Made by a program: the position numbers and the translations under genes. From an uncultured Flavobacteriaceae bacterium (GTDB lineage: Bacteria > Bacteroidota > Bacteroidia > Flavobacteriales > Flavobacteriaceae), in assembly GCA_964451785.1 (NCBI GenBank), contig CAYVJG010000012.1:5620-69619 (forward strand): a stretch of 64,000 nucleotides of DNA. Direction: 5' to 3'. Positions 5,317 through 24,319 of this stretch are shown here, piece after piece; position 1 is the first letter of the stretch, and the number at the start of each line of letters is the position of its first letter. A model generated the notes under the pieces. The model was not told the origin of the DNA and made no database searches. It worked only from the letters and a program-made list of their open reading frames with translations.

Positions 5317-6648
5317 ATGTATAATCGATTTCTTCTCTTTTTGACTATTATAACTGCTGTTTTAAGCACTGTGAGTTGTACTGTTGAAAATGTAGATACC
5401 AACATTATTCCTAAAACAGATTATTCACATTACAATTATGTGATGGCTACTGAAGACGCCTCAAATTCAGATATTACACGTTTCTTTACCTTTGATTTAT
5501 CTGCAATAGATCCGACTGTTTCTTATGATTTGATTGCGCAGAATCAACAGTTTGTAAATTCAGATCCTTCAACCTCATCGGGTTATCGTTCATTTGATAA
5601 TTACATCTTTAGTATGGCTAAAGATAAAAAGGGATTTTCCTCAACCCCCGGCTTATTTCGATTGACCTTAAATACGGATAACCGTATGTTTATCGATCGC
5701 GAGATTTTTATTGGTAAAGAAAATTTATTTCCGCCGCGCAAGCTGTGTATCGTCAATGACCATATCGGATTTTTCTACAATGAATCTGCCGGAGGCCAAG
5801 TGATACAAATGTTTGACCCCTCCACGATGATGACCTTAGATCAAATCGACCTCAAACCTTATATCAAAGCCTTTAAACCTGATGCTAAATTTGAAGATGA
5901 ATCAGGAAACAACTTGATACGTACCGGAACTTTAGTACTCGATTATCAAGCAGATAAACTCTATGTGAGTGTTGCTTTTTTAGAACAAGCTAGTTTTAAT
6001 TTAATCAGTGAAGATGAAACTAATTTTTACCTAGCGGTAATCGATATTCCGAGTTTTAGCTTTGATAAAATTATCAGTTATCCACATGCTAAAACAGTTG
6101 GTTTTTTTGTGTCAGAAAACAATCCGACTACACGTGATGAAGCCGGAAATCTCTATTTTTGTTCGTGGGGATGGAACCAATTTTACAGTCAAGATCCTTC
6201 AAAAATATTTCGAATCAAAGCCGGAGAAAACGACTTTGATGACCAATGGATGATTGATATCGAAAGCTTATTTGGCGAAGATCATATTGCGCAATCTATT
6301 CAAGCTTATAATGGTAAAATTTACTTGCATATTTCACAAGCGCCTTATTTGTTTTCTTCAAGTGAACAGATAGAAAACAATAATGAAATGGTCATGGGTT
6401 ACTATGAATTTGATCCCGCACATCCCGGTCAATTTCACAAATTGGCAATTCCTGAATCCAATCCTTCATCGCGTATGAGTGTGTTTAGTATTGTGGATAA
6501 TAAATTGTTTATCGCTGTTCCGAATGAAAACCCTGATAAATTTAATGGATTCTATTCTTTAAATCGACAAGGTGAATTGAAAAAAGAAATTACAATAGCT
6601 AATAAATATCGCCCAACACGTTTGTATAAATTGAAAATCAGTGAATAA
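5317..6648 (+). CDS. Surface lipoprotein partnered with the TonB-dependent receptor (possibly DUF4374/XusB-like)
   Basis: 443 aa with lipoprotein leader LSTVSC. It starts 4 nt after the receptor stop. The family assignment is from memory of synteny and size only. Confidence 0.5.
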   Translation: MYNRFLLFLTIITAVLSTVSCTVENVDTNIIPKTDYSHYNYVMATEDASNSDITRFFTFDLSAIDPTVSYDLIAQNQQFVNSDPSTSSGYRSFDNYIFSMAKDKKGFSSTPGLFRLTLNTDNRMFIDREIFIGKENLFPPRKLCIVNDHIGFFYNESAGGQVIQMFDPSTMMTLDQIDLKPYIKAFKPDAKFEDESGNNLIRTGTLVLDYQADKLYVSVAFLEQASFNLISEDETNFYLAVIDIPSFSFDKIISYPHAKTVGFFVSENNPTTRDEAGNLYFCSWGWNQFYSQDPSKIFRIKAGENDFDDQWMIDIESLFGEDHIAQSIQAYNGKIYLHISQAPYLFSSSEQIENNNEMVMGYYEFDPAHPGQFHKLAIPESNPSSRMSVFSIVDNKLFIAVPNENPDKFNGFYSLNRQGELKKEITIANKYRPTRLYKLKISE

Positions 6649-10459: not shown

Positions 10460-13396
10460 ATGAAACACTTGTTTTTAATTGTACTTACTTGTTTGCTTAT
10501 TCAGCCTGTGGCTTGGTCTCAAGAAAGTAAAATTATCGTAAAGGGATCTGTAGTCGATGCAGGTACGCAAACTCCAATTCCGGGAGTTTTTATTGTTGAA
10601 CAAGGAACTGATAATGGTGTAGTTACCGATTTTGATGGTAATTTTACAATTGAAGTTCCTGGAAATGCTAGCTTAGAAGCTTCATACATGGGCTACGCTA
10701 CTCAAACTGTAGCTGTCAACAATCAAACCGAACTGTTTATTAATCTAAAAGTATCTACCAATAGCCTTGATGAAGTTGTTATTGTGGGATATAGCACACA
10801 ACAAAAAGGAAAACTAACCGCTGCAGTTTCTACTATTGAAGGTGAAGACCTCGAAGAGGTGAGTACACCAAATGTGTCAGGAATGCTACAAGGAAAAGCT
10901 GCCGGTGTTCAAGTAGTTAATTCTAGTGGACAACCAGGAGCCTTGCCGGATATTCATATTCGTGGCATCTCTTCATTAAACGGAAGTACAAGTCCGCTTT
11001 GGGTAGTTGATGGGGTTATCGTTCACGGTACACCAAATATTGATCCTAATAATGTCAAGTCAATTTCTGTGTTGAAAGACGCTTCTGCAACCGCTCTTTA
11101 CGGTTCACGTGGTGCTAACGGAGTTGTGGTGGTGACCACTAAAACAGGTAAAGTTGGCGAGACCGTAGTTAATGTTAGTGCTCGTACTGGGTTTTCTAAC
11201 TTTAATATGGGGAATTTTGAAGTGATGAACTCTCAAGAACTCTACAATTATTATCAAAAGTTTAGTAACCCTGATCGAATTCCTGCCGGCATTACTGAAG
11301 ATGTGCTTAATACTGATTTTGATTGGGTTAAAAATGGAACGCAAACAGGCCAATTACAAGATTATAATGTGTCGCTTTCCGGAGGAACCGAAAAATCACG
11401 AACTTACTTATCTCTAGGCTATTTTGATGCTACAGGTACACTAAAAGGATTTGACTACAACCGTATGAGTATGCGCCTTAATTTAGAATATGATGTTACT
11501 GATAAACTAACCGTTAAGCCTAAAGTAGGGGTGAACTATACCACACGCAAAAATCGCCAACACGATTTGTATTCTATGTTTACAAACATGCCTTGGGATA
11601 ATCCTTATGCTGAAGATGGTTCAGTTGTTAATCCTCAGGAAACAGGTGTACAATGGTTTGGTCGTGATAAATCTAATTACTTATATGATTTACAGTGGAA
11701 TCACTCTAAAACAAATACCCTAAACTTGTTTACTAACATGGATTTGGTTTATGATATTACACCAAACTTGAAGTTTATCTCTACTAACAGTTATACCTTA
11801 TACTATAGTCGTGCTAAATCTTATACTGATCCACGCTCTAACGGTGGTAAAGCTATTGATGGCGCTTTAGAAGAATCAAATGCACAACGCATTACCAGAT
11901 TCACCAACCAAATGCTGCGTTATACCAACAAATTTGGAGATAATCAAGCGCATGAAATTAGTGCCTTAGCTGCTTATGAATATAATGATTATGTGTATGA
12001 AAGTATGGGCACACGCGGCATTGGCTTGATTGCCGGTAGTGAAATTTTAGATGTGACCGCAACCCCTGATAAGGCTTATGGAACTAAAAATGACTATGCT
12101 TTGCAATCATTTTTAACTAATGTTGACTATAGCTATGACGATCGCTATATGGGGCAAATATCTTTGCGTTATGACGGCGCGTCAAACTTTGGGGAGAACA
12201 ACAAATACGGAGTCTTTTACTCATTTAGTGGTGGATGGAATATTCACAATGAAAGCTTCTTCAAAAGCAATATTTTTGATCAGTTAAAACTCAGAGCTAG
12301 TTATGGTGCTGTCGGAAATAGACCGAGCTCATTGTATCCACAATACGCTTTATACGACATTAAAAATACCTATACAGGCCTGCCGGCTGCAACGCCTTCT
12401 CAATTAGGAAACCCTGATTTAGGTTGGGAAAAATCATACCAAACGAACCTTGCTGTTGACGCTATTGTCTTTGATCGTTTTAATGTGACTCTTGAATATT
12501 ATAACAAAAATACATCAGACTTGCTATATTTTGTAACCTTACCTTCTGTAACCGGTTATACAGGTTATTGGGAAAATATTGGTGGTGTGAAAAATACAGG
12601 AGTTGAACTTGCTGTAGGCGCTGATATCTTTAAACCTGAAAGCGATTTCCAATGGAACTTAAACGTTAATATTGGAAGCAACCAAAACGAAGTTACTGAT
12701 CTATATGAAGGACAAGAAGTTACTCGTGGGTACAAAATTACTCAAATCGGAGAAGATTTTAATACCTGGTACATGCGCAAATGGTTAGGCGTAGATCCTG
12801 AAAATGGAAATCCACTTTGGGAAGCCGTTGACCCTAATACTGGTGAGCGCACTGCAACATCAGATTATAACGAGGCGACTAAACAAAAGGTAGGAACTTC
12901 TAGTCCTGATTTTTACGGGGGTATAAATTCTGCTATGACTTATAAAGGCTTTAGCTTAAATATGAGCTTCTCTTTTGTCAGTGGCGGCGAAATCTTAAAC
13001 TTGTCTCGTCAGCTTTACGATGCCGATGGTACTTACCCAACTTACAATCAACAAAAACTAGCTGATGGCTGGAACCGTTGGGAAAAACCGGGCGACATAG
13101 CCACACACCCTAAATTAGTGTACGGTGGTAACAATAACTCCAATAAACCCTCTTCTCGTTATTTAGAAGACGGCAGTTATTTTAGATTGAGAAACATAAA
13201 ACTCGGTTATTCTTTTTCTGATAAAGTTACAGAATCACTTAAAATCAATCGTTTAAGTGTATATTTTACAGCAGACAATGTCTTTACGTTAACTGATTTT
13301 AGCGGTACAGACCCTGAAGTTGGTGTAGGGGGTATTTATAACAACCTCTATCCAATTCCGCGTCGTTTTGCCATAGGTGTTAATCTTTCTCTTTAA
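10460..13396 (+). CDS. SusC/RagA-family TonB-linked outer-membrane protein
   Basis: 978 aa with a signal peptide and CarboxypepD_reg N-domain (GSVVDAGTQTPIPGV). It carries the SusC signature region (DEVVIVGYSTQQK, LYGSRGANGVVVVTTKTG) and a C-terminal barrel. Confidence 0.93.
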   Translation: MKHLFLIVLTCLLIQPVAWSQESKIIVKGSVVDAGTQTPIPGVFIVEQGTDNGVVTDFDGNFTIEVPGNASLEASYMGYATQTVAVNNQTELFINLKVSTNSLDEVVIVGYSTQQKGKLTAAVSTIEGEDLEEVSTPNVSGMLQGKAAGVQVVNSSGQPGALPDIHIRGISSLNGSTSPLWVVDGVIVHGTPNIDPNNVKSISVLKDASATALYGSRGANGVVVVTTKTGKVGETVVNVSARTGFSNFNMGNFEVMNSQELYNYYQKFSNPDRIPAGITEDVLNTDFDWVKNGTQTGQLQDYNVSLSGGTEKSRTYLSLGYFDATGTLKGFDYNRMSMRLNLEYDVTDKLTVKPKVGVNYTTRKNRQHDLYSMFTNMPWDNPYAEDGSVVNPQETGVQWFGRDKSNYLYDLQWNHSKTNTLNLFTNMDLVYDITPNLKFISTNSYTLYYSRAKSYTDPRSNGGKAIDGALEESNAQRITRFTNQMLRYTNKFGDNQAHEISALAAYEYNDYVYESMGTRGIGLIAGSEILDVTATPDKAYGTKNDYALQSFLTNVDYSYDDRYMGQISLRYDGASNFGENNKYGVFYSFSGGWNIHNESFFKSNIFDQLKLRASYGAVGNRPSSLYPQYALYDIKNTYTGLPAATPSQLGNPDLGWEKSYQTNLAVDAIVFDRFNVTLEYYNKNTSDLLYFVTLPSVTGYTGYWENIGGVKNTGVELAVGADIFKPESDFQWNLNVNIGSNQNEVTDLYEGQEVTRGYKITQIGEDFNTWYMRKWLGVDPENGNPLWEAVDPNTGERTATSDYNEATKQKVGTSSPDFYGGINSAMTYKGFSLNMSFSFVSGGEILNLSRQLYDADGTYPTYNQQKLADGWNRWEKPGDIATHPKLVYGGNNNSNKPSSRYLEDGSYFRLRNIKLGYSFSDKVTESLKINRLSVYFTADNVFTLTDFSGTDPEVGVGGIYNNLYPIPRRFAIGVNLSL

Positions 13397-13407
13397 AACT
13401 AAGCCAA

Positions 13408-15063
13408 ATGAAAAAATCAATTTATATTATTTTATTAAGCGTTTTTCTATTTAGCGCTTGTGATATTGAACGTCATCCCTATGATTCAGTGGTGACCGAA
13501 GACTTGTTAAGTACTGAAGAGGGGTTACAAGCGGCTACGCTCGGTAATTACGCCATTCTTAAAGGCCCTGTTGACAGCGATGGTTGGGCGGCTGTTTTAC
13601 ACAGAATTGTAGAATATGCCGGAGATAATGTGTCGCTGAGTGGCGCGACTACAGATCAACTGTACTATTTTTATAACTATAAGAATATTAAAAATAACGG
13701 TAGATCAAATTCATTCTGGAATTTGTCTTATAAGGCTATAGTTGGCGCTAATAAAGTTATCGAACTTGTTGACGAAGGCGTTTCTGCCGAAAACGATCAG
13801 TTAATCGGTGAAAACTATTATTTAAGAGCTTTGATTTACTTCCAAATAGTCAATGTGTACGGTCGTCAATATGCGCAAGATCCTAATGCGCTAGGGGTAC
13901 CACTTAAATTGACTTCAGATATTACTGACCTTCCTGATCGCAATACGGTTGGTGAAGTGTATGAGCAAGTGGTTAAAGACCTTAAAAAAGCAGAATCTTT
14001 AATGAGTATTGACAAAGGCCCTGCTTTTGCTTCTAAACCGGCTGCTCAAGCATTGTTGTCACGGGTTTATTTGTATATGGAAGAAAATCAGTTGGCTATT
14101 GATTATGCCAATAAGGTGATCGAATCTGGTAAATACTCATTAGTGCCTACCACTCAATTTGGGGATTATATTAAAATGGAACCTAAAAATAATCCGGAAA
14201 CTATTTTCGCCATTAAATACGAAAAAGAATCAGATTATGGCAGTGGCTATTATACTGTAGGTTCATTCTATGCGCAGATTGAAGGTGTAGGCTGGGGCGA
14301 AATGTACGCGTCTAGTTCTTACCTCAACTTGATTAATCAACATCCTGAAGATGTGCGTAAAGAATTTATAGATCCACAATATTTGTTAGATGATAACGGC
14401 AACAAAATTCCTGCAGTTTACTGGGTTGACGAAGATTATAACTATGTGTTTAAACGCACCACTACGCAAAACGGCAATTTGTATTTTGACGATAATGGCA
14501 CCCAACGTCAAGTGGTGACTGAGTCACAAACCGGAATGGCTGATAAGTACTACTTTATCAATGCAGATGGCGATAAAACCTATGTCACTAAAGGTTATGA
14601 TATTGATAAACGCAATGGTTATCCTAAATTTTACATCTTAAAATGCTCATTACAACAAGATGTACCACAATTGTGGTCGCCAGTGATTTCACGTTTAGGC
14701 GAATTGTACCTCAATCGCGCAGAGGCTTATGCTAAGTTGGGTAACGCAGCAGCAGCTTTAGAAGATGTTAATCGCATTAGAACGCGTGCCGGTATTCCTA
14801 CTTATACTTCTGCAGCTGATTTTCCTACCGGAATGGATATTTTAGATATCGTCTTGCAAGAACGTCATCTAGAAATGGCTTGGGAAGGTCAACGCAAATT
14901 TGATATTTTCCGCAATGGACTTACTTTAGATCGCCATTATCCGGGTTCTCATCTCAATGGAAATTCTCCTTATTATGAAGTTACTCCTCAGGATAATCGC
15001 ACAATCTTGTTTATTCCGGAACAACAAATGGAGGCTCAACCTTCTTTACAACAAAATCCTTAA
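13408..15063 (+). CDS. SusD/RagB-family nutrient-binding lipoprotein
   Basis: 551 aa with lipoprotein leader LFSAC. It sits immediately after SusC and has a TPR-like SusD C-terminal region (LYLNRAEAYAKLGN, ERHLEMAWEGQRKFD). Confidence 0.92.
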   Translation: MKKSIYIILLSVFLFSACDIERHPYDSVVTEDLLSTEEGLQAATLGNYAILKGPVDSDGWAAVLHRIVEYAGDNVSLSGATTDQLYYFYNYKNIKNNGRSNSFWNLSYKAIVGANKVIELVDEGVSAENDQLIGENYYLRALIYFQIVNVYGRQYAQDPNALGVPLKLTSDITDLPDRNTVGEVYEQVVKDLKKAESLMSIDKGPAFASKPAAQALLSRVYLYMEENQLAIDYANKVIESGKYSLVPTTQFGDYIKMEPKNNPETIFAIKYEKESDYGSGYYTVGSFYAQIEGVGWGEMYASSSYLNLINQHPEDVRKEFIDPQYLLDDNGNKIPAVYWVDEDYNYVFKRTTTQNGNLYFDDNGTQRQVVTESQTGMADKYYFINADGDKTYVTKGYDIDKRNGYPKFYILKCSLQQDVPQLWSPVISRLGELYLNRAEAYAKLGNAAAALEDVNRIRTRAGIPTYTSAADFPTGMDILDIVLQERHLEMAWEGQRKFDIFRNGLTLDRHYPGSHLNGNSPYYEVTPQDNRTILFIPEQQMEAQPSLQQNP

Positions 15064-18906: not shown

Positions 18907-19311
18907 TCAATACAAGTAGCTTTGTAAGATGACAGTGGCACTAATCTCATCGATTAAAGCTTTGTTGCGACGCTTCTTTTTGCCCAATCCACTGTCTATC
19001 ATCGTCTGAAAAGCTATTTTAGAACTGTAGCGCTCATCGACACGCTTGTAAGGCATCTCAGGGAATTTAGCGGTAAAAACTTTTAAAAATTCTTGAATAT
19101 ACACCTCGCTTTGTGATGGGCTGCCGTCTTTTTGCTTAGGTTCACCAACTAATACAAGTTCAACCGACTCTTTAGCAAAGTAATCTGTTAAAAATGGAAT
19201 CAATTCTGGCGTGTGGACGGTGGTTAACCCCGATGCAATAATCTTCATCTCATCTGTAACCGCTATTCCACAGCGTTTCGTGCCGTAATCTATTGCTAAA
19301 ATCCTTGCCAT
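18907..19311 (-). CDS. ruvX: Holliday junction resolvase-like protein RuvX/YqgF
   Basis: MARILAIDYGTKRCGIAVTD is the typical YqgF N-terminus. The track ORF's 43-codon upstream extension runs into repeat R3 and is rejected. Confidence 0.88.
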   Translation of the reverse strand: MARILAIDYGTKRCGIAVTDEMKIIASGLTTVHTPELIPFLTDYFAKESVELVLVGEPKQKDGSPSQSEVYIQEFLKVFTAKFPEMPYKRVDERYSSKIAFQTMIDSGLGKKKRRNKALIDEISATVILQSYLY

Positions 19312-19408
19312 ATTTTTATTTTGCACAAAGATAAAGTTTATTCTTAAACTGCTTTTGATTTTTCTGTTTTGGTTTTGGAGAGTGAGCGTTTCAGTTGCCA
19401 TAAGGAGT

Positions 19409-19541: not shown

Positions 19542-19731
19542 TATTCTAGGGTAAAGAATAGGTGTAAGAATTATTTATGATAATATTCCCGTCCGTTTCC
19601 TGTGTTAAAAGTGGGGCTTTGGGTTAGAAAGGGAAAGCGACGGTGTTTCCAACGATTGCGATTTTTCTTTTCCCCAGCCCTAAAGGTTGTGAAAATCATG
19701 AAACTTTGTTTTTGCTGAAGGTTATTAGAAT

Positions 19732-19789
19732 AATTTTACATATCTTTAACAAACGCAAATCAACCGTGTTACTTTTAACAAAACCCTAA
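19732..19789 (+). repeat. Left 58 bp direct repeat bracketing the RHS island
   Basis: aattttacatatctttaacaaaCgcaaatcaaccgt..aacaaaaccctaa matches 23338-23395 with 5 mismatches. It is in frame with the downstream RHS ORF. Confidence 0.85.
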
Positions 19790-19818
19790 GGGGGAAACAC
19801 TATGACGAATTCAACCGC

Positions 19819-21711
19819 TTGCGCGAGGCCAATGGCTTTTACATCGCCCCTAATGACACCCCGCAGAATCAATTGCTGCGGCAGCAATACCGCACCAGTA
19901 TGAGCTATAATGACAATCAAGACATTAGCGTGAAATACCAAGACCACCACCAAGCCGTGGTGGGCAACTTGACGCCGCCTCAGTCGAGCGCGCTGCAGCA
20001 GGTTTTTCCGACAAGCTACATCTTGGTATATGACGATTATGCCACGGGCAGCTTTTCGGCGGGCAACTACACCTATGTGCAGCCACACGCCCCGCGCACC
20101 CTGGTGGTGAAACCAACTGTTCCTACGGCGAGCAACGACCCGCGCATTAGTCATAAAAAACTGCAGTATGACGCTAATGGAAATTTGACAAGCGTTTCTC
20201 AGAACATTACAACTCCCGGAGCGCCATTAGCCGACACGCAGCTGCTTTTGCGCCAGTATCGCTGGGACGAAGAAAACCGATTGCGCGCTGTTGACTTGCA
20301 GCCTGAAAACCCAACTAACCAGCCCAAAATTGCGGCTTACACTTATGATGCAAGCGGGCAACGCGTGGTGCGCTATGTGTCTGAACAGTTGAAAGCTTAT
20401 TTTAGTGGTCACCCCTCCGGGCGGGCACACCAACTGGAAATAGCGGTGTATCCCAGTGGTTTTATCTCGGCAAAAGCCTTGACTGAACGGGGGATACACA
20501 AGGAATTTATGACCTATACCAAGCATTTTTACATCGGCAGTCAACGCGTGGCTAGCGTGAAGGGCGGCAGCAATGGTGTGGGGCGGTATTTGAGCAACAG
20601 TAGCTTGGAAACGGCAAGCTCCTATTTTGGAATTTTGCAAGAAAAGCGACAGACCGCCACCCAAGCCTTAGCCGCCGATTATGCGGCTTTCAACAAAACC
20701 CTAACCCTGCCACAGCCGTTTGCGCTCTCGCCCATTACGTCAAGCTCCTACCGACAACAGCGCCACACCTACTGGTTTCACCCCGACCACCTCGGCAGCT
20801 CGAGTTATATTTCAAATATAAACGGGAGGATTTCACAGCATATAGAATACTTCCCTTTCGGCGAAACCTTGGTTGAAGAACACAAAAACTCCAATAACTC
20901 GCCTTATAAATTTAATGGCAAAATGCTAGACGCTGAAACCGGGAATTATTACTACGGCGCAAGATATTACAACCCTAAATGGAGCCTGTGGCTGAGCGTT
21001 GACCCGCTGGCGGAAAACTACCCCGGCTGGTCACCGTATAATTATACCTTGTATAATCCGGTGCGGTTTGTGGACCCGGATGGGCGGAGTGTGGCGATGC
21101 CGGACAACTGGTATAAGAACAAAGAAACAGGTGAAGTAATTTGGATTGATGGGGATAAGGATTATTACGGTTACGAAAACTTAGGATTTGATCATCATGA
21201 GGTTTTTCGTAAAAACCCTGATGATTTGTGGTTGACCCGTGTACAGTATGATGGAGATACAAAAACAAAATCGGTTAACCGTCAAGTGGTCAAACATTAT
21301 GAATCGAGTACAATGCGCAAAGGATACAATTTTGTAATGGACAACTTTGTCGGTTCTACGATGGCAGGGGTACAAGAATTGGGTTGGATAGTCGTTGGGA
21401 CAGGAATTGCCGTAAAAGCCCAGTTTAAAGAAGTGATGAATGGCGGCGATGGTTTGGGCATACACATTGATATGGCTATGCCCATTTATGTCATTCAAAA
21501 CGGGAAACTTATGAAAATGGATTTAGCTGAATATTCCTTTGGGGAATTAGTGAGTAATGGGTTTTCGGGACTGACTGCATTGGCTGGAGGGACAAGTACT
21601 GTGTTTAAAACAGGAATAAAAGAATGGTATGGTGAAGCTATTGATTATTTGGCAGATAAAACCTTAGGATATTATATTGGCGAAGGATTGGGAAAATTAA
21701 AGGGGAAGTAA
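19819..21711 (+). CDS. 5'-truncated RHS/YD-repeat core fragment with an unrecognised C-terminal toxin tip
   Basis: YD repeats are present (QYDANGNLTS, YTYDASGQRV). The RHS-associated core end is YYYGARYYNPKWSLWLSVDPL..YNPVRFVDPDGR at ~20950-21087. About 200 aa of lower-GC tip follow. The frame is open from 19750 and the track start is a TTG. No N-terminal RHS part lies upstream. Confidence 0.85.
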   Translation: MREANGFYIAPNDTPQNQLLRQQYRTSMSYNDNQDISVKYQDHHQAVVGNLTPPQSSALQQVFPTSYILVYDDYATGSFSAGNYTYVQPHAPRTLVVKPTVPTASNDPRISHKKLQYDANGNLTSVSQNITTPGAPLADTQLLLRQYRWDEENRLRAVDLQPENPTNQPKIAAYTYDASGQRVVRYVSEQLKAYFSGHPSGRAHQLEIAVYPSGFISAKALTERGIHKEFMTYTKHFYIGSQRVASVKGGSNGVGRYLSNSSLETASSYFGILQEKRQTATQALAADYAAFNKTLTLPQPFALSPITSSSYRQQRHTYWFHPDHLGSSSYISNINGRISQHIEYFPFGETLVEEHKNSNNSPYKFNGKMLDAETGNYYYGARYYNPKWSLWLSVDPLAENYPGWSPYNYTLYNPVRFVDPDGRSVAMPDNWYKNKETGEVIWIDGDKDYYGYENLGFDHHEVFRKNPDDLWLTRVQYDGDTKTKSVNRQVVKHYESSTMRKGYNFVMDNFVGSTMAGVQELGWIVVGTGIAVKAQFKEVMNGGDGLGIHIDMAMPIYVIQNGKLMKMDLAEYSFGELVSNGFSGLTALAGGTSTVFKTGIKEWYGEAIDYLADKTLGYYIGEGLGKLKGK

Positions 21712-21899
21712 TGGGATTACCTGGTTTAATAGGGATGTGTATCAGGTTTATATTTGTATTTCATTGCAGTTTCAAAAAGAAAAATGAGGCAACAAAAAAA
21801 GATATGGATGCAGAGAAAGCCAAGGATGGTCAGGTCGGATTAATTGGCTTAATTGTAATTATTATAGCAATGGGGGTTACTTATGAATTGATGCACTAA
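21711..21899 (+). CDS. 62 aa two-TM membrane protein, candidate cognate immunity protein
   Basis: Its ATG overlaps the toxin stop (gTAATGg). Hydrophobic segments are GLPGLIGMCIRFIFVF and VGLIGLIVIIIAMGV, joined by a charged loop. A paralogue sits at 22140-22331. Confidence 0.6.
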   Translation: MGLPGLIGMCIRFIFVFHCSFKKKNEATKKDMDAEKAKDGQVGLIGLIVIIIAMGVTYELMH

Positions 21900-21939: not shown

Positions 21940-22140
21940 ATGAAAATGGATTTAGCCGAATATTCTTTTGGGGAGTTAGTGAGTAATGGGTTTTCTGGGA
22001 TAACAACTTTGGCCGGAGGTGTTGGTTCTGTACTGAAATCAGGAATTAAAGGAAAATTTGGAGATATATTAGATTTTTCATCTGAGAAAGTCACAGATTA
22101 TTATATTGGAGAGAGATTAAAGGAGTTAAAAGAGAGATAA
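21940..22140 (+). CDS. Orphan copy of the toxin C-terminal tail (last ~70 aa)
   Basis: The frame is open from 21904. IQNGKLMKMDLAEYSFGELVSNGFSG is identical to the main toxin at 21493 onward, then diverges. There is no RHS core upstream. Confidence 0.6.
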   Translation: MKMDLAEYSFGELVSNGFSGITTLAGGVGSVLKSGIKGKFGDILDFSSEKVTDYYIGERLKELKER

Positions 22141-22334: not shown

Positions 22335-22757
22335 TTGTTTCACGGAATTTACATAGACGGAATAGGCAGCACTAATATGGGTGTTATAACAGGTTCAGGC
22401 GCGAGCTCTCGAATAGGCTACGACGAGCTGACAGGTTTTGGAAGCGAAGCCGGCAGTAGCCGATTGGGGAAACTACTTCAGTCGGTGGCGTTATTTTTTC
22501 AAGCGTTGATGCCGGGAGAGGATAACACAATGACCACTACCGTTGTGAAACCGGGGAGGACAAATCAGCTTCCGGCGGAAAAAAAGGTGAAAATGATAAA
22601 ATTTAAAGTGGTGGAAATTAACAATAAAACGTTTTACCCATCAGGTGCGTATGACTATAGAGAGTTCGATACACTAGTCCCTATAAATGGTGTCGAAAAT
22701 TTTAAAATAATGACAAGTAAGGATAGAGATTCAGTCTATAGATATCCGAAATATTAA
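22335..22757 (+). CDS. Hypothetical protein; possible further orphan toxin fragment
   Basis: The frame opens immediately after the stop of the preceding gene. The track start is TTG and the first ATG is at 22377. The 5' half is G+C-richer (Gly/Ser-rich) and the 3' half AT-rich. I recognise no motif. Confidence 0.4.
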   Translation: MFHGIYIDGIGSTNMGVITGSGASSRIGYDELTGFGSEAGSSRLGKLLQSVALFFQALMPGEDNTMTTTVVKPGRTNQLPAEKKVKMIKFKVVEINNKTFYPSGAYDYREFDTLVPINGVENFKIMTSKDRDSVYRYPKY

Positions 22758-22764
22758 TAACAAT

Positions 22765-23271
22765 ATGAAAAAAATATTAATAACAATCATATGCATAGGG
22801 GTATTGTTTTCTTGTAACAATACTAAGCACTCTTCTCATAATAAGGAAAATATAAAACCTTTAAAAGATACACTATGGCTTGAATTTACCCCTGAAAATA
22901 ATGATTCACTAAAGGTTGCTGTAAATTATTATTTTGGGATAGACACATTGGCTTCCCAAGAAGTTATGGATAGAGCTACTATTTTTTACTTTACTTTTAG
23001 AGAAATATCGATTGATGAATTAAAGAAAATTATTTTCTTAAAGTATAGTGAAAAACGGAGAAATGAAGTCAATGAAAATAAAATCAGCCAAATTCATATA
23101 CCTGTTAATAAGCAGTATAGTTTCTATGTGCAATTAGGAACTAAAAAAGTTCATCATTTAACAGGAATGGTTGTTGACAATTTTTTAATTAAAATTAAGG
23201 ACTCTATAAAAAGCGATACCGTAGTTGTAAGAAAAGTAGGAACGTCTATAGAACAGTACTTTAAGTTTTAA
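22765..23271 (+). CDS. Small lipoprotein; candidate immunity partner of 22335-22757
   Basis: 168 aa with leader ICIGVLFSC. It starts 8 nt after the preceding stop. It is AT-rich with no recognisable family. Confidence 0.45.
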   Translation: MKKILITIICIGVLFSCNNTKHSSHNKENIKPLKDTLWLEFTPENNDSLKVAVNYYFGIDTLASQEVMDRATIFYFTFREISIDELKKIIFLKYSEKRRNEVNENKISQIHIPVNKQYSFYVQLGTKKVHHLTGMVVDNFLIKIKDSIKSDTVVVRKVGTSIEQYFKF

Positions 23272-23337
23272 ATTGAGTTAAGTCAGTTCTAATAGCCTAT
23301 TGGCAGGTAAATCTTACACATAATTGCATAGCAAAAC

Positions 23338-23420
23338 AATTTTACATATCTTTAACAAATGCAAATCAACCGTCTCGCTTTCAACAAAACCCTAACCCTG
23401 CCACAGCCGTTTGCGCTCTC
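23338..23420 (+). repeat. Right 58 bp direct repeat plus an exact 44 bp copy of internal RHS sequence
   Basis: 23338-23395 matches 19732-19789. 23377-23420 is identical to 20686-20729 (gctttcaacaaaaccctaaccctgccacagccgtttgcgctctc). It contains an ATG at 23359 heading a 25-codon mini-ORF. Confidence 0.85.
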
Positions 23421-23500: not shown

Positions 23501-24319
23501 ATGGAAGAATTAAAAAATAAGATTTTAGCAGCTTGGGATAATCGAGAGCTCTTAAAAGAAGAAGCAACTAAAGCAGCCATTAAAGAAGTGGTTAACTTAT
23601 TAGATGCAGGTAAATTGCGCTGTGCTGAACCAGATGCTAATGGCGGATGGCAAGTTAACGAATGGGTTAAAAAAGGCGTTGTGTTGTATTTTCCTATTCA
23701 AGAAATGAAAACCCTCGAAGCTGGTATCTTTGAATATCACGACAAAATGCCACTAAAATCAGGCTATAAAGAAAAAGGCATTCGTGTGGTGCCTAACGCT
23801 GTAGCTCGCCATGGCGCTTATATTTCAAAAGGAGTCATCATGATGCCTAGTTATGTCAACATCGGCGCTTATGTTGATGAAGGTACTATGGTTGACACCT
23901 GGGCAACAGTGGGAAGTTGTGCTCAAATTGGCAAAAATGTGCACCTTTCGGGTGGCGTGGGCATTGGTGGCGTGCTCGAACCTCTACAAGCGGCTCCTGT
24001 GATTATTGAAGACAACGCATTTATCGGTTCGCGTTGTATTGTAGTTGAAGGGGCACGCGTTGAAAAAGAAGCAGTACTAGGGGCTAATGTGGTGTTGACG
24101 GGATCAACTAAAATTATCGATGTCACTGGCGATGAGCCTAAAATTATGAAAGGAGTAGTGCCAGCGCGTAGTGTGGTGATTCCTGGAAGCTATACCAAAT
24201 CTTTTCCGGCTGGTGATTTTCAAGTGCCTTGTGCCTTGATTATCGGAAAACGCAAGGAGAGTACTAATAAAAAAACATCGCTTAACGATGCACTTCGTGA
24301 ATACAATGTGTCTGCTTAA
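23501..24319 (+). CDS. dapD: 2,3,4,5-tetrahydropyridine-2,6-dicarboxylate N-succinyltransferase
   Basis: 272 aa with hexapeptide-repeat region (GAYVDEGTMVDTWATVGSCAQIGKNVHLSGGVGIGG) and a typical DapD N-terminus. Confidence 0.9.
   Translation: MEELKNKILAAWDNRELLKEEATKAAIKEVVNLLDAGKLRCAEPDANGGWQVNEWVKKGVVLYFPIQEMKTLEAGIFEYHDKMPLKSGYKEKGIRVVPNAVARHGAYISKGVIMMPSYVNIGAYVDEGTMVDTWATVGSCAQIGKNVHLSGGVGIGGVLEPLQAAPVIIEDNAFIGSRCIVVEGARVEKEAVLGANVVLTGSTKIIDVTGDEPKIMKGVVPARSVVIPGSYTKSFPAGDFQVPCALIIGKRKESTNKKTSLNDALREYNVSA

Follow-up and report, generated by a model that had tools for sequence, protein, structure and literature searches.

The 64,000-nt stretch analyzed here (hereinafter the window) comes from an uncultured Flavobacteriaceae bacterium (GenBank assembly GCA_964451785.1, contig CAYVJG010000012.1, forward-strand positions 5,620 to 69,619) and carries a 3.6-kb island between the genes ruvX (18910-19320, minus strand) and dapD (23501-24319, plus strand). 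The island contains a truncated Rhs gene, whose C-terminal tip had been flagged in an initial annotation, made from the sequence alone, as an unrecognized and possibly membrane-acting toxin followed by a tiny membrane immunity protein. We find this gene pair to be a standard Rhs C-terminal toxin (Rhs-CT)/immunity cassette of a new, unnamed family that is held here as an orphan. The features on which this assignment turns are the following:

19790..21087, plus strand: N-terminally truncated Rhs/YD shell fragment, with the Rhs-associated core and DPDGR at its end; its open reading frame (ORF) starts at TTG 19819
21100..21306, plus strand: tip N-subdomain (DWYKNKETGEVIWIDG...), tip residues 5-73, a small β-rich module
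21307..21711, plus strand: tip C-domain, the putative toxin domain, tip residues 74-207 and the stop codon
21711..21899, plus strand: candidate immunity gene 1, 62 residues, in a TAATG overlap with the toxin stop codon
21904..22140, plus strand: orphan (displaced) toxin C-domain fragment, the last 66-72 tip residues
22140..22331, plus strand: candidate immunity gene 2, 63 residues, TAATG overlap, cognate to the orphan fragment

The Rhs ORF (19819-21711, plus strand; 630 residues, TTG start) lies in a frame that is open from 19750. An NCBIfam scan recovered the Rhs-associated core (TIGR03696) at ORF residues 344-422 (E=5.4 × 10–20) together with a YD repeat, and the Rhs/Tc shell proteins of the PDB (YenC2, TccC3, Tse5, and others) align to residues ~311-423 only, ending at 422/423. 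The core ends in a DPxGx autoproteolysis motif (DPDGR, 21073-21087) directly before the variable tip, the arrangement of an Rhs polymorphic toxin, and the ~200-residue tip that had been proposed to follow this boundary indeed begins there, with 207 residues (21088-21708). Only ~420 residues of shell precede the tip, and homology starts abruptly at ~19790 after AT-rich non-coding DNA; the window's Rhs ORF contains neither an N-terminal plug or delivery domain nor a complete YD-repeat shell. Full-length relatives carry a DUF6443 domain, for which a literature search found no papers, and exceed 1100 residues. Lacking its N-terminal half and any delivery domain, the Rhs gene probably cannot fire, and we consider it very likely to be an orphan cassette. 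The GC content of the Rhs core, 0.46-0.55, exceeds that of the flanks (about 0.35) and of the tip and small ORFs (0.34-0.41). In a related locus (L003 2325-5657, GCA_965111995.1), the tip is encoded in an ORF that shares ~115 nt, in a different frame, with the end of a DUF6443/Rhs ORF, an arrangement that looks like a full-length Rhs gene with its tip, broken by a frameshift that is either real or an assembly error.

Exhaustive HMMER searches with the tip against 1.84 billion representatives recovered 19 proteins at E ≤ 10–3 (best E=2.9 × 10–27), and a profile search added 13 further relatives, mostly Chryseobacterium Rhs fragments; no Pfam domain was accepted in any relative found. A word-indexed protein search with the tip alone returned nothing, a tip-derived peptide pattern found no relatives among genome and metagenome contigs, and tblastn of the tip against plasmids gave no match. 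As judged from these searches, the tip family is rare, comes from Flavobacteriales and metagenomes, and is unnamed in Pfam and NCBIfam. The tip itself has no significant match in either library; its profile retrieved only HU-like and S8 matches among PDB sequences (E ≥ 0.18), and Foldseek comparisons of both AlphaFold2 (AF2) models against the PDB gave nothing at E ≤ 0.001. The statements of the initial annotation that the tip represents an unrecognized family and displays no recognized toxin motif are thus upheld, and AF2 with Foldseek yielded no confident match to an enzymatic fold in the PDB, the C-domain model being itself of low confidence. An HU/IHF-like identity of the tip was considered and not accepted: the match (E=0.18) is not significant, Foldseek is silent, and a DNA-bending protein would be a misfit for a membrane immunity partner.

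These comparisons also show the tip to be built of two modules. The N-subdomain, marked by the motif DWYxNxETGExxW, is predicted by AF2 to comprise seven strands (predicted local distance difference test score [pLDDT] 70-90). Five proteins (P0005, P0010, P0011, P0013, and P0016) match the window tip in this module only and continue into unrelated, often glycine-rich C-termini. The C-domain, with homologues in P0001, P0002, P0006, P0007, P0008, P0012, P0014, and P0020-26, is predicted to have the order helix, helix, β-hairpin, helix, helix, with low confidence (pLDDT <50; 60-77 for the first half in a second model); in Chryseobacterium it is preceded by linkers different from the window N-subdomain. 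Since the C-domain occurs with other linkers and the N-subdomain with other C-termini, we identify the last ~130 residues as the family-specific toxin candidate and the N-subdomain as a module exchangeable between tips. Accordingly, where the entire ~200 residues after DPDGR had been taken as the toxin, this holds for the C-terminal ~130 residues but not for the N-subdomain, which is also found with unrelated C-termini. The sole Pfam match for the N-subdomain, DUF7675, was not accepted (E=0.19, in one of the 19 members scanned). As a separate observation, six proteins that share either the N-subdomain or the Chryseobacterium linker (P0005, P0011, P0013, P0016, P0029, and P0030) bear different C-termini with up to 16% glycine and no Pfam match, and two of these tips have hydrophobic segments with a Kyte-Doolittle mean of 1.8-1.9; these glycine-rich tips may represent further uncharacterized toxin families.

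The gene directly behind the C-domain belongs to an unannotated family of 47 clusters, all of 60-67 residues, from Chryseobacterium, Epilithonimonas, and metagenomes. Its members share the motif G..G..IRxIF[IV][YF][KR], with G8, R12, I14, and F15 invariant, and the family is conserved down to ~30% identity. Hidden Markov models of the C-domain and of the small protein match adjacent ORFs in every C-domain locus examined (the window, twice, and L003, L004, L005/6, L009, L010, L011-13, and L101-104), at spacings ranging from an overlap up to ~40 nt; recurrence of the same gene pair in distant relatives argues against a chance juxtaposition. The sequence identities of toxin and immunity proteins co-vary (r=0.82, 28 pairs), and the small gene is also found by itself (L094-97 and L098-100), either behind an Rhs tip that has degenerated or among other small genes in arrays. 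Because a homologue of the small protein directly follows the C-domain everywhere we looked, co-varies with it, and also occurs as an orphan, we are highly confident that the two constitute a toxin/immunity pair. The small ORF overlapping the toxin stop codon (TAATG, 21711-21899) had been nominated as the immunity gene, and both its position and its candidacy are borne out by these observations.

Two sets of loci deserve separate mention. On an ENA metagenome contig (L008 116-613, protein P0008), the toxin C-terminus and the small protein are read in one frame of 165 residues with no intervening stop, which could reflect a natural fusion, the decay of an orphan, or an error in sequencing. On four other ENA metagenome contigs (L101-L104), a homologous tip/immunity pair lies at the end of an Rhs protein of at least 790 residues. 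Its neighbors are a ParE-like toxin/antitoxin pair, a primase-like gene, and two tyrosine-recombinase genes, a setting suggestive of an integrative element as carrier.

A second, diverged cassette of the same family follows immediately in the window. Its toxin fragment has a frame open from 21904, homology from 21922 (IQNGKL), and an ATG at 21940; the resulting 66-residue ORF (21940-22140), whose product is identical to P0027, is 64% identical to tip residues 142-205 (E=10–26). The immunity gene behind it encodes a protein 62% identical to the first immunity protein over 45 residues (E=5 × 10–21). A 5′-truncated fragment homologous to the preceding toxin end, with an immunity gene of its own behind it, is the layout of an orphan rhs-CT module. 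Between the two toxin ends the ratio of nonsynonymous to synonymous substitution rates (dN/dS) is 0.19, with dN=0 and dS=0.67 over the first 20 codons, and between the immunity genes nonsynonymous differences per site (pN) reach 0.21-0.29 with synonymous sites saturated. These values show both window copies to have evolved under purifying selection; going by their sequences, they are old alleles and not the outcome of a recent duplication.

We then consider what the immunity protein might say of the target. The 62-residue protein of the window has two hydrophobic segments, with 19-residue Kyte-Doolittle means (KD19; usual threshold for a transmembrane [TM] segment 1.6) of 1.7 and 2.3, separated by a 20-residue loop rich in Lys, Glu, and Asp. 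Across the family, the second segment (mean 2.6) is clearly transmembrane, and the first, which contains the invariant Arg, is borderline as a TM helix (mean 1.59). The description of the protein as two TM helices with a charged loop is therefore sound for the second segment and the loop, but only marginally so for the first segment. The mean number of positive charges is 0.04 ahead of the Arg, 4.7 within the 19-24-residue loop, and 0.4 within the C-tail, a distribution that predicts a cytoplasmic loop and periplasmic termini, and AF2 models the protein as a helical hairpin (pLDDT 87-90). With a C-tail averaging about 4 residues, the outer side of the membrane is left almost bare. As almost nothing protrudes outside, neutralization would have to occur within the bilayer or else rely on the short cytoplasmic loop. 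A protein lying almost entirely inside the membrane supports the earlier argument that so small a membrane immunity protein favors a membrane-acting toxin.

On this basis we lean toward a membrane-level target for the C-domain: its predicted immunity protein has almost nothing outside the bilayer, and two-helix membrane immunity proteins, namely Tsi5 and CdiI, are known for membrane-inserting toxins. That the C-domain is a true pore or ionophore is a narrower proposition, which we regard as possible but tentative.

Two known systems provide the closest working likenesses. Tse5 (RhsP1), an Rhs toxin of the Pseudomonas aeruginosa H1 type VI secretion system (H1-T6SS), forms pores and depolarizes cells, and its immunity protein Tsi5 is a tiny two-helix membrane protein (PMC9637101). 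As in Tse5/Tsi5 (PMC9637101, PMC10684867), the window's Rhs shell would free a C-terminal fragment with no recognizable enzymatic motif, and the immunity protein is small, assigned to the cytoplasmic membrane with two predicted TM regions (the first borderline), and encoded directly downstream. The tip nevertheless showed no sequence similarity to Tse5: its profile has no significant match in the PDB, where the core matches Tse5 chain 8cp6_B and the presence of a separate Tse5-CT chain in the library is unconfirmed. Further, regions of Tse5-CT behaved as transmembrane in reporter fusions, whereas the window family has no segment of TM grade, and Tse5 itself is complete, a VgrG-linked PAAR-like/Rhs effector, whereas the window gene is a truncated Flavobacteriaceae orphan. 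The second likeness is to the ionophore toxins of contact-dependent growth inhibition (CDI; the CdiA-CT EC93 family), which are countered by tiny two-helix membrane CdiI proteins of 72-100 residues (PMC11630599). They too have a bipartite tip, in which the toxin domain comes after an N-terminal module that can be exchanged (PMC11630599). Their toxin domain is likewise strongly polymorphic within the family and co-varies with a tiny hairpin immunity protein of two helices, immunity being allele-specific in CDI and predicted to be so in the window family. However, CDI toxins are delivered by CdiA and the window tip is borne on Rhs. CDI toxin domains are all-helical five-helix bundles with a common GxxxGxxxG motif, whereas the C-domain is predicted to have four helices and a β-hairpin (AF2 pLDDT <50 to 77) and no conserved zipper. 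CdiI proteins have termini predicted to be cytoplasmic, in contrast to the predicted periplasmic termini of the 60-67-residue window family. Colicin V and class II microcin-type toxins are ribosomal peptides exported with leader peptides and paired with small two-TM immunity proteins. The window pair recalls them in joining a C-terminal polypeptide rich in glycine and small residues to a membrane immunity protein of ~60-80 residues, but its toxin is Rhs cargo and no similarity was detected. By analogy, then, Tse5-CT/Tsi5 or the CDI ionophores would be the nearest relatives in kind, although sequence or fold, TM helices, and zipper place the window pair in neither.

Several properties of the toxin weigh against membrane action. 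The maximal KD19 of the window tip is 1.27, and the maxima of the 19 relatives span 0.7-1.5, always below 1.6. Its helices are neither strongly hydrophobic nor strongly amphipathic, the Eisenberg mean of 0.46-0.54 being short of the initiator level of 0.68. GxxxG-type motifs in the C-domain are not more frequent than in 5000 composition-matched shuffles (p=0.12, 0.44, and 0.52), and their positions are not conserved among homologues; the sole strict zipper, GYYIGEGLGKLKG, is polar and C-terminal and is found neither in the second copy nor in the homologues. Hence, of the two glycine-rich hydrophobic stretches that had been noted in the tip, the stretches themselves are present (tip residues 89-109 and 156-176) but, with a Kyte-Doolittle peak of 1.27, 'hydrophobic' overstates them, and their likeness to the glycine-zipper segments of membrane-depolarizing effectors is not supported, with motifs at chance level, unconserved, and accompanied by no TM-grade segment. 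To the same side belong a polar motif conserved across the family, R..WNFxxDNxxSxPxEGxQ, which could be a catalytic or ligand site, and the structural predictions, in which AF2 gave neither a confident C-domain fold nor a confident interface in a toxin/immunity chimera. The window tip carries Ala at the conserved Glu of the family, and this copy may be inactive. A further conserved element is an N-G turn in the predicted hairpin of the C-domain. Overall, the toxin itself bears little sign of membrane insertion and looks membrane-active only weakly, while the conserved polar motif leaves room for a possible enzymatic or ligand-binding activity.

Combining these lines of evidence, we modestly favor the reading of the whole as a polymorphic-toxin cassette of an unnamed family, orphan in the window, with a target at the level of the membrane. 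Under this proposal, a full-length Rhs protein would deliver the tip, and the C-domain would be freed at DPDGR. It would then act in or at the cytoplasmic membrane of the target cell, dissipating its integrity or potential or attacking a membrane-embedded component. The immunity hairpin would neutralize it within the bilayer, with the termini in the periplasm, the charged loop in the cytoplasm, and the invariant Arg deep in the first segment. The diverged second cassette suggests that allele specificity would reside, for the toxin, in its last ~45 residues and, for the immunity protein, in the loop plus the second helix. The locus itself, with two cassettes of the family and possibly a third unrelated one, is most likely a store of immunity genes and recombination substrates. 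A stronger version of the proposal, that this is a new mechanistic class in which a soluble-looking α/β toxin with no TM segment acts inside the membrane and is disarmed by the mid-membrane Arg of a 60-residue hairpin, we consider improbable.

Among the alternatives, the one that fares best makes the C-domain a soluble enzyme whose substrate is lipid-linked (lipid II or undecaprenyl-phosphate carriers, for example) and is attacked at the membrane surface, where the small protein would block the enzyme. This is how colicin M, TelC, and the diffusible 'lipocone' toxins operate. Such an enzyme would account for the soluble-looking, non-TM helices of the C-domain, as well as for the conserved R..WNFxxDNxxSxPxEGxQ and the invariant N-G turn. 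There is also precedent in polymorphic-toxin tips that are helical and of low hydrophobicity, and have immunity proteins that are membrane-anchored or multi-TM and whose predicted site of action is the periplasm or the membrane (PMC12419801). However, the immunity protein exposes few residues on the periplasmic side and has no domain with which to cap an active site; further, the C-domain conserves no His, Cys, or Lys, and its conserved Glu is an Ala in the window copy. Moreover, searches of Pfam, the PDB, and Foldseek found no sequence or fold match to such enzyme families, lipocone profiles not being among those compared. We judge the enzymatic alternative unlikely.

Less of a case can be made for decaying debris, that is, for the tip and small ORFs being functionless relics whose conservation merely reflects recent common descent. 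The truncated Rhs gene with its TTG start, the reduction of the second toxin copy to a 66-residue fragment, the missing conserved Glu of the window tip, and the rearrangement scars at the island's junctions would all fit decay. Yet every ORF is intact, the toxin C-termini have a dN/dS of ~0.2, and the immunity genes show a strong synonymous excess, while the small-protein family keeps its invariant residues over 47 clusters diverging to ~30% identity. In addition, orphan immunity genes are generally understood to be retained as protection against the toxins of neighbors (see also PMC10470768 and PMC10539506). Debris is thus, in our view, quite improbable. The Eag/DUF1795 chaperones of T6SS Rhs effectors are encoded upstream of their effectors and bind N-terminal regions. 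That the small ORF is instead an accessory membrane factor (a chaperone, an export or insertion helper, or a holin-like partner) would sit well with the single frame of P0008, but is very improbable given that the gene also occurs without a toxin in orphan-gene arrays, that its 3′ position, stop/start overlap, and diversification in step with the toxin C-terminus are the signature of immunity, and that the known Rhs accessory factors behave as just described.

Rhs tips constitute a large reservoir of untested antibacterial activities, of which membrane-acting toxins are among the least understood. In the favored reading of a toxin/immunity cassette with a membrane-level target, the invariant arginine of the minimal immunity protein offers a direct handle for mutagenesis, and the two diverged cassettes lying side by side amount to a natural specificity-swap experiment. 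If the toxin is membrane-active with no hydrophobic helix, it would widen the notion of what pore-forming or ionophoric effectors look like; if it is enzymatic, it would represent a new fold among envelope-targeting toxins. As one more uncharacterized polymorphic-toxin family, it is a useful addition that would not surprise specialists.

In its organization, the locus resembles orphan rhs-CT/immunity modules and the orphan immunity arrays of Bacteroidales, known as acquired interbacterial defense, in which toxin fragments without their 5′ part keep their cognate immunity genes. As in orphan rhs-CT modules, the modules are stacked in series and differ in composition from the host genome, and, as in orphan immunity arrays, homologues of the window's immunity gene are found alone in arrays and, in L101-104, beside integrases. 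Unlike displaced rhs-CT modules, there is no full-length rhs gene upstream within the window, and the island sits between the housekeeping genes ruvX and dapD with 61-nt repeats as its bounds. The remaining features of the island are:

19729..19789, plus strand: left 61-nt direct repeat, 90% identical to 23335-23395
22335..23271, plus strand: possible third orphan module, consisting of a 140-residue ORF (22335-22757, GC 0.45) and a 168-residue ORF (22765-23271)
23335..23420, plus strand: right boundary, formed by the second 61-nt repeat (23335-23395) and a 44-nt relic (23377-23420) that overlap each other

The 168-residue ORF has a lipoprotein-type N-terminus (MKKILITIICIGVLFSC); neither it nor the 140-residue ORF has a match in Pfam, NCBIfam, or the PDB. 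By position only, the two may be a third orphan toxin-fragment/immunity pair.

At the junctions, the final 17 nt of the left repeat (TTTTAACAAAACCCTAA) recur inside the Rhs core, and the 44-nt relic upstream of dapD is 100% identical to the Rhs-internal segment 20686-20729. Against 0.08 occurrences expected, three copies of the 17-mer TTTYAACAAAACCCTAA are present, one in the Rhs core and one at each island junction, and two of them are in frame (FNKTL). The 44-mer is the exact point at which short-read contigs from public runs break, and the Logan contig L001 both starts and ends inside it; as far as the assembly graph goes, a 2.69-kb circular form would be an equivalent solution. The junction repeats could be either the scar of a recombination event or a site marking cassette boundaries, and the 17-mer could mark an exchange site for C-terminal cassettes. 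The ORFs from dnaG (15336) to the M48 peptidase gene (25675) were scanned against Pfam, and no gene for a recombinase was noted among them. A scan for sigma-70 promoters and terminators gave nothing above shuffled sequences, the sigma-70 model being one that does not apply to Bacteroidota promoters.

The housekeeping neighbors identified with Pfam are dnaG, def, ruvX, dapD, an ArsC-family gene, and the M48 peptidase gene. Retrieval via dapD gave 69 Flavobacteriaceae loci (best dapD protein identity 86%, with no close genome among them), in most of which ruvX and dapD are divergent and 60-200 bp apart, against ~4.2 kb in the window, where the Rhs island separates them; in several of these other genomes the gap is enlarged to 0.6-1.6 kb. 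Further upstream in the window (10460-15063), a gene for a SusC-like TonB-dependent receptor is paired with a SusD-family gene, which fits the Bacteroidota (Flavobacteriaceae) origin of the DNA.

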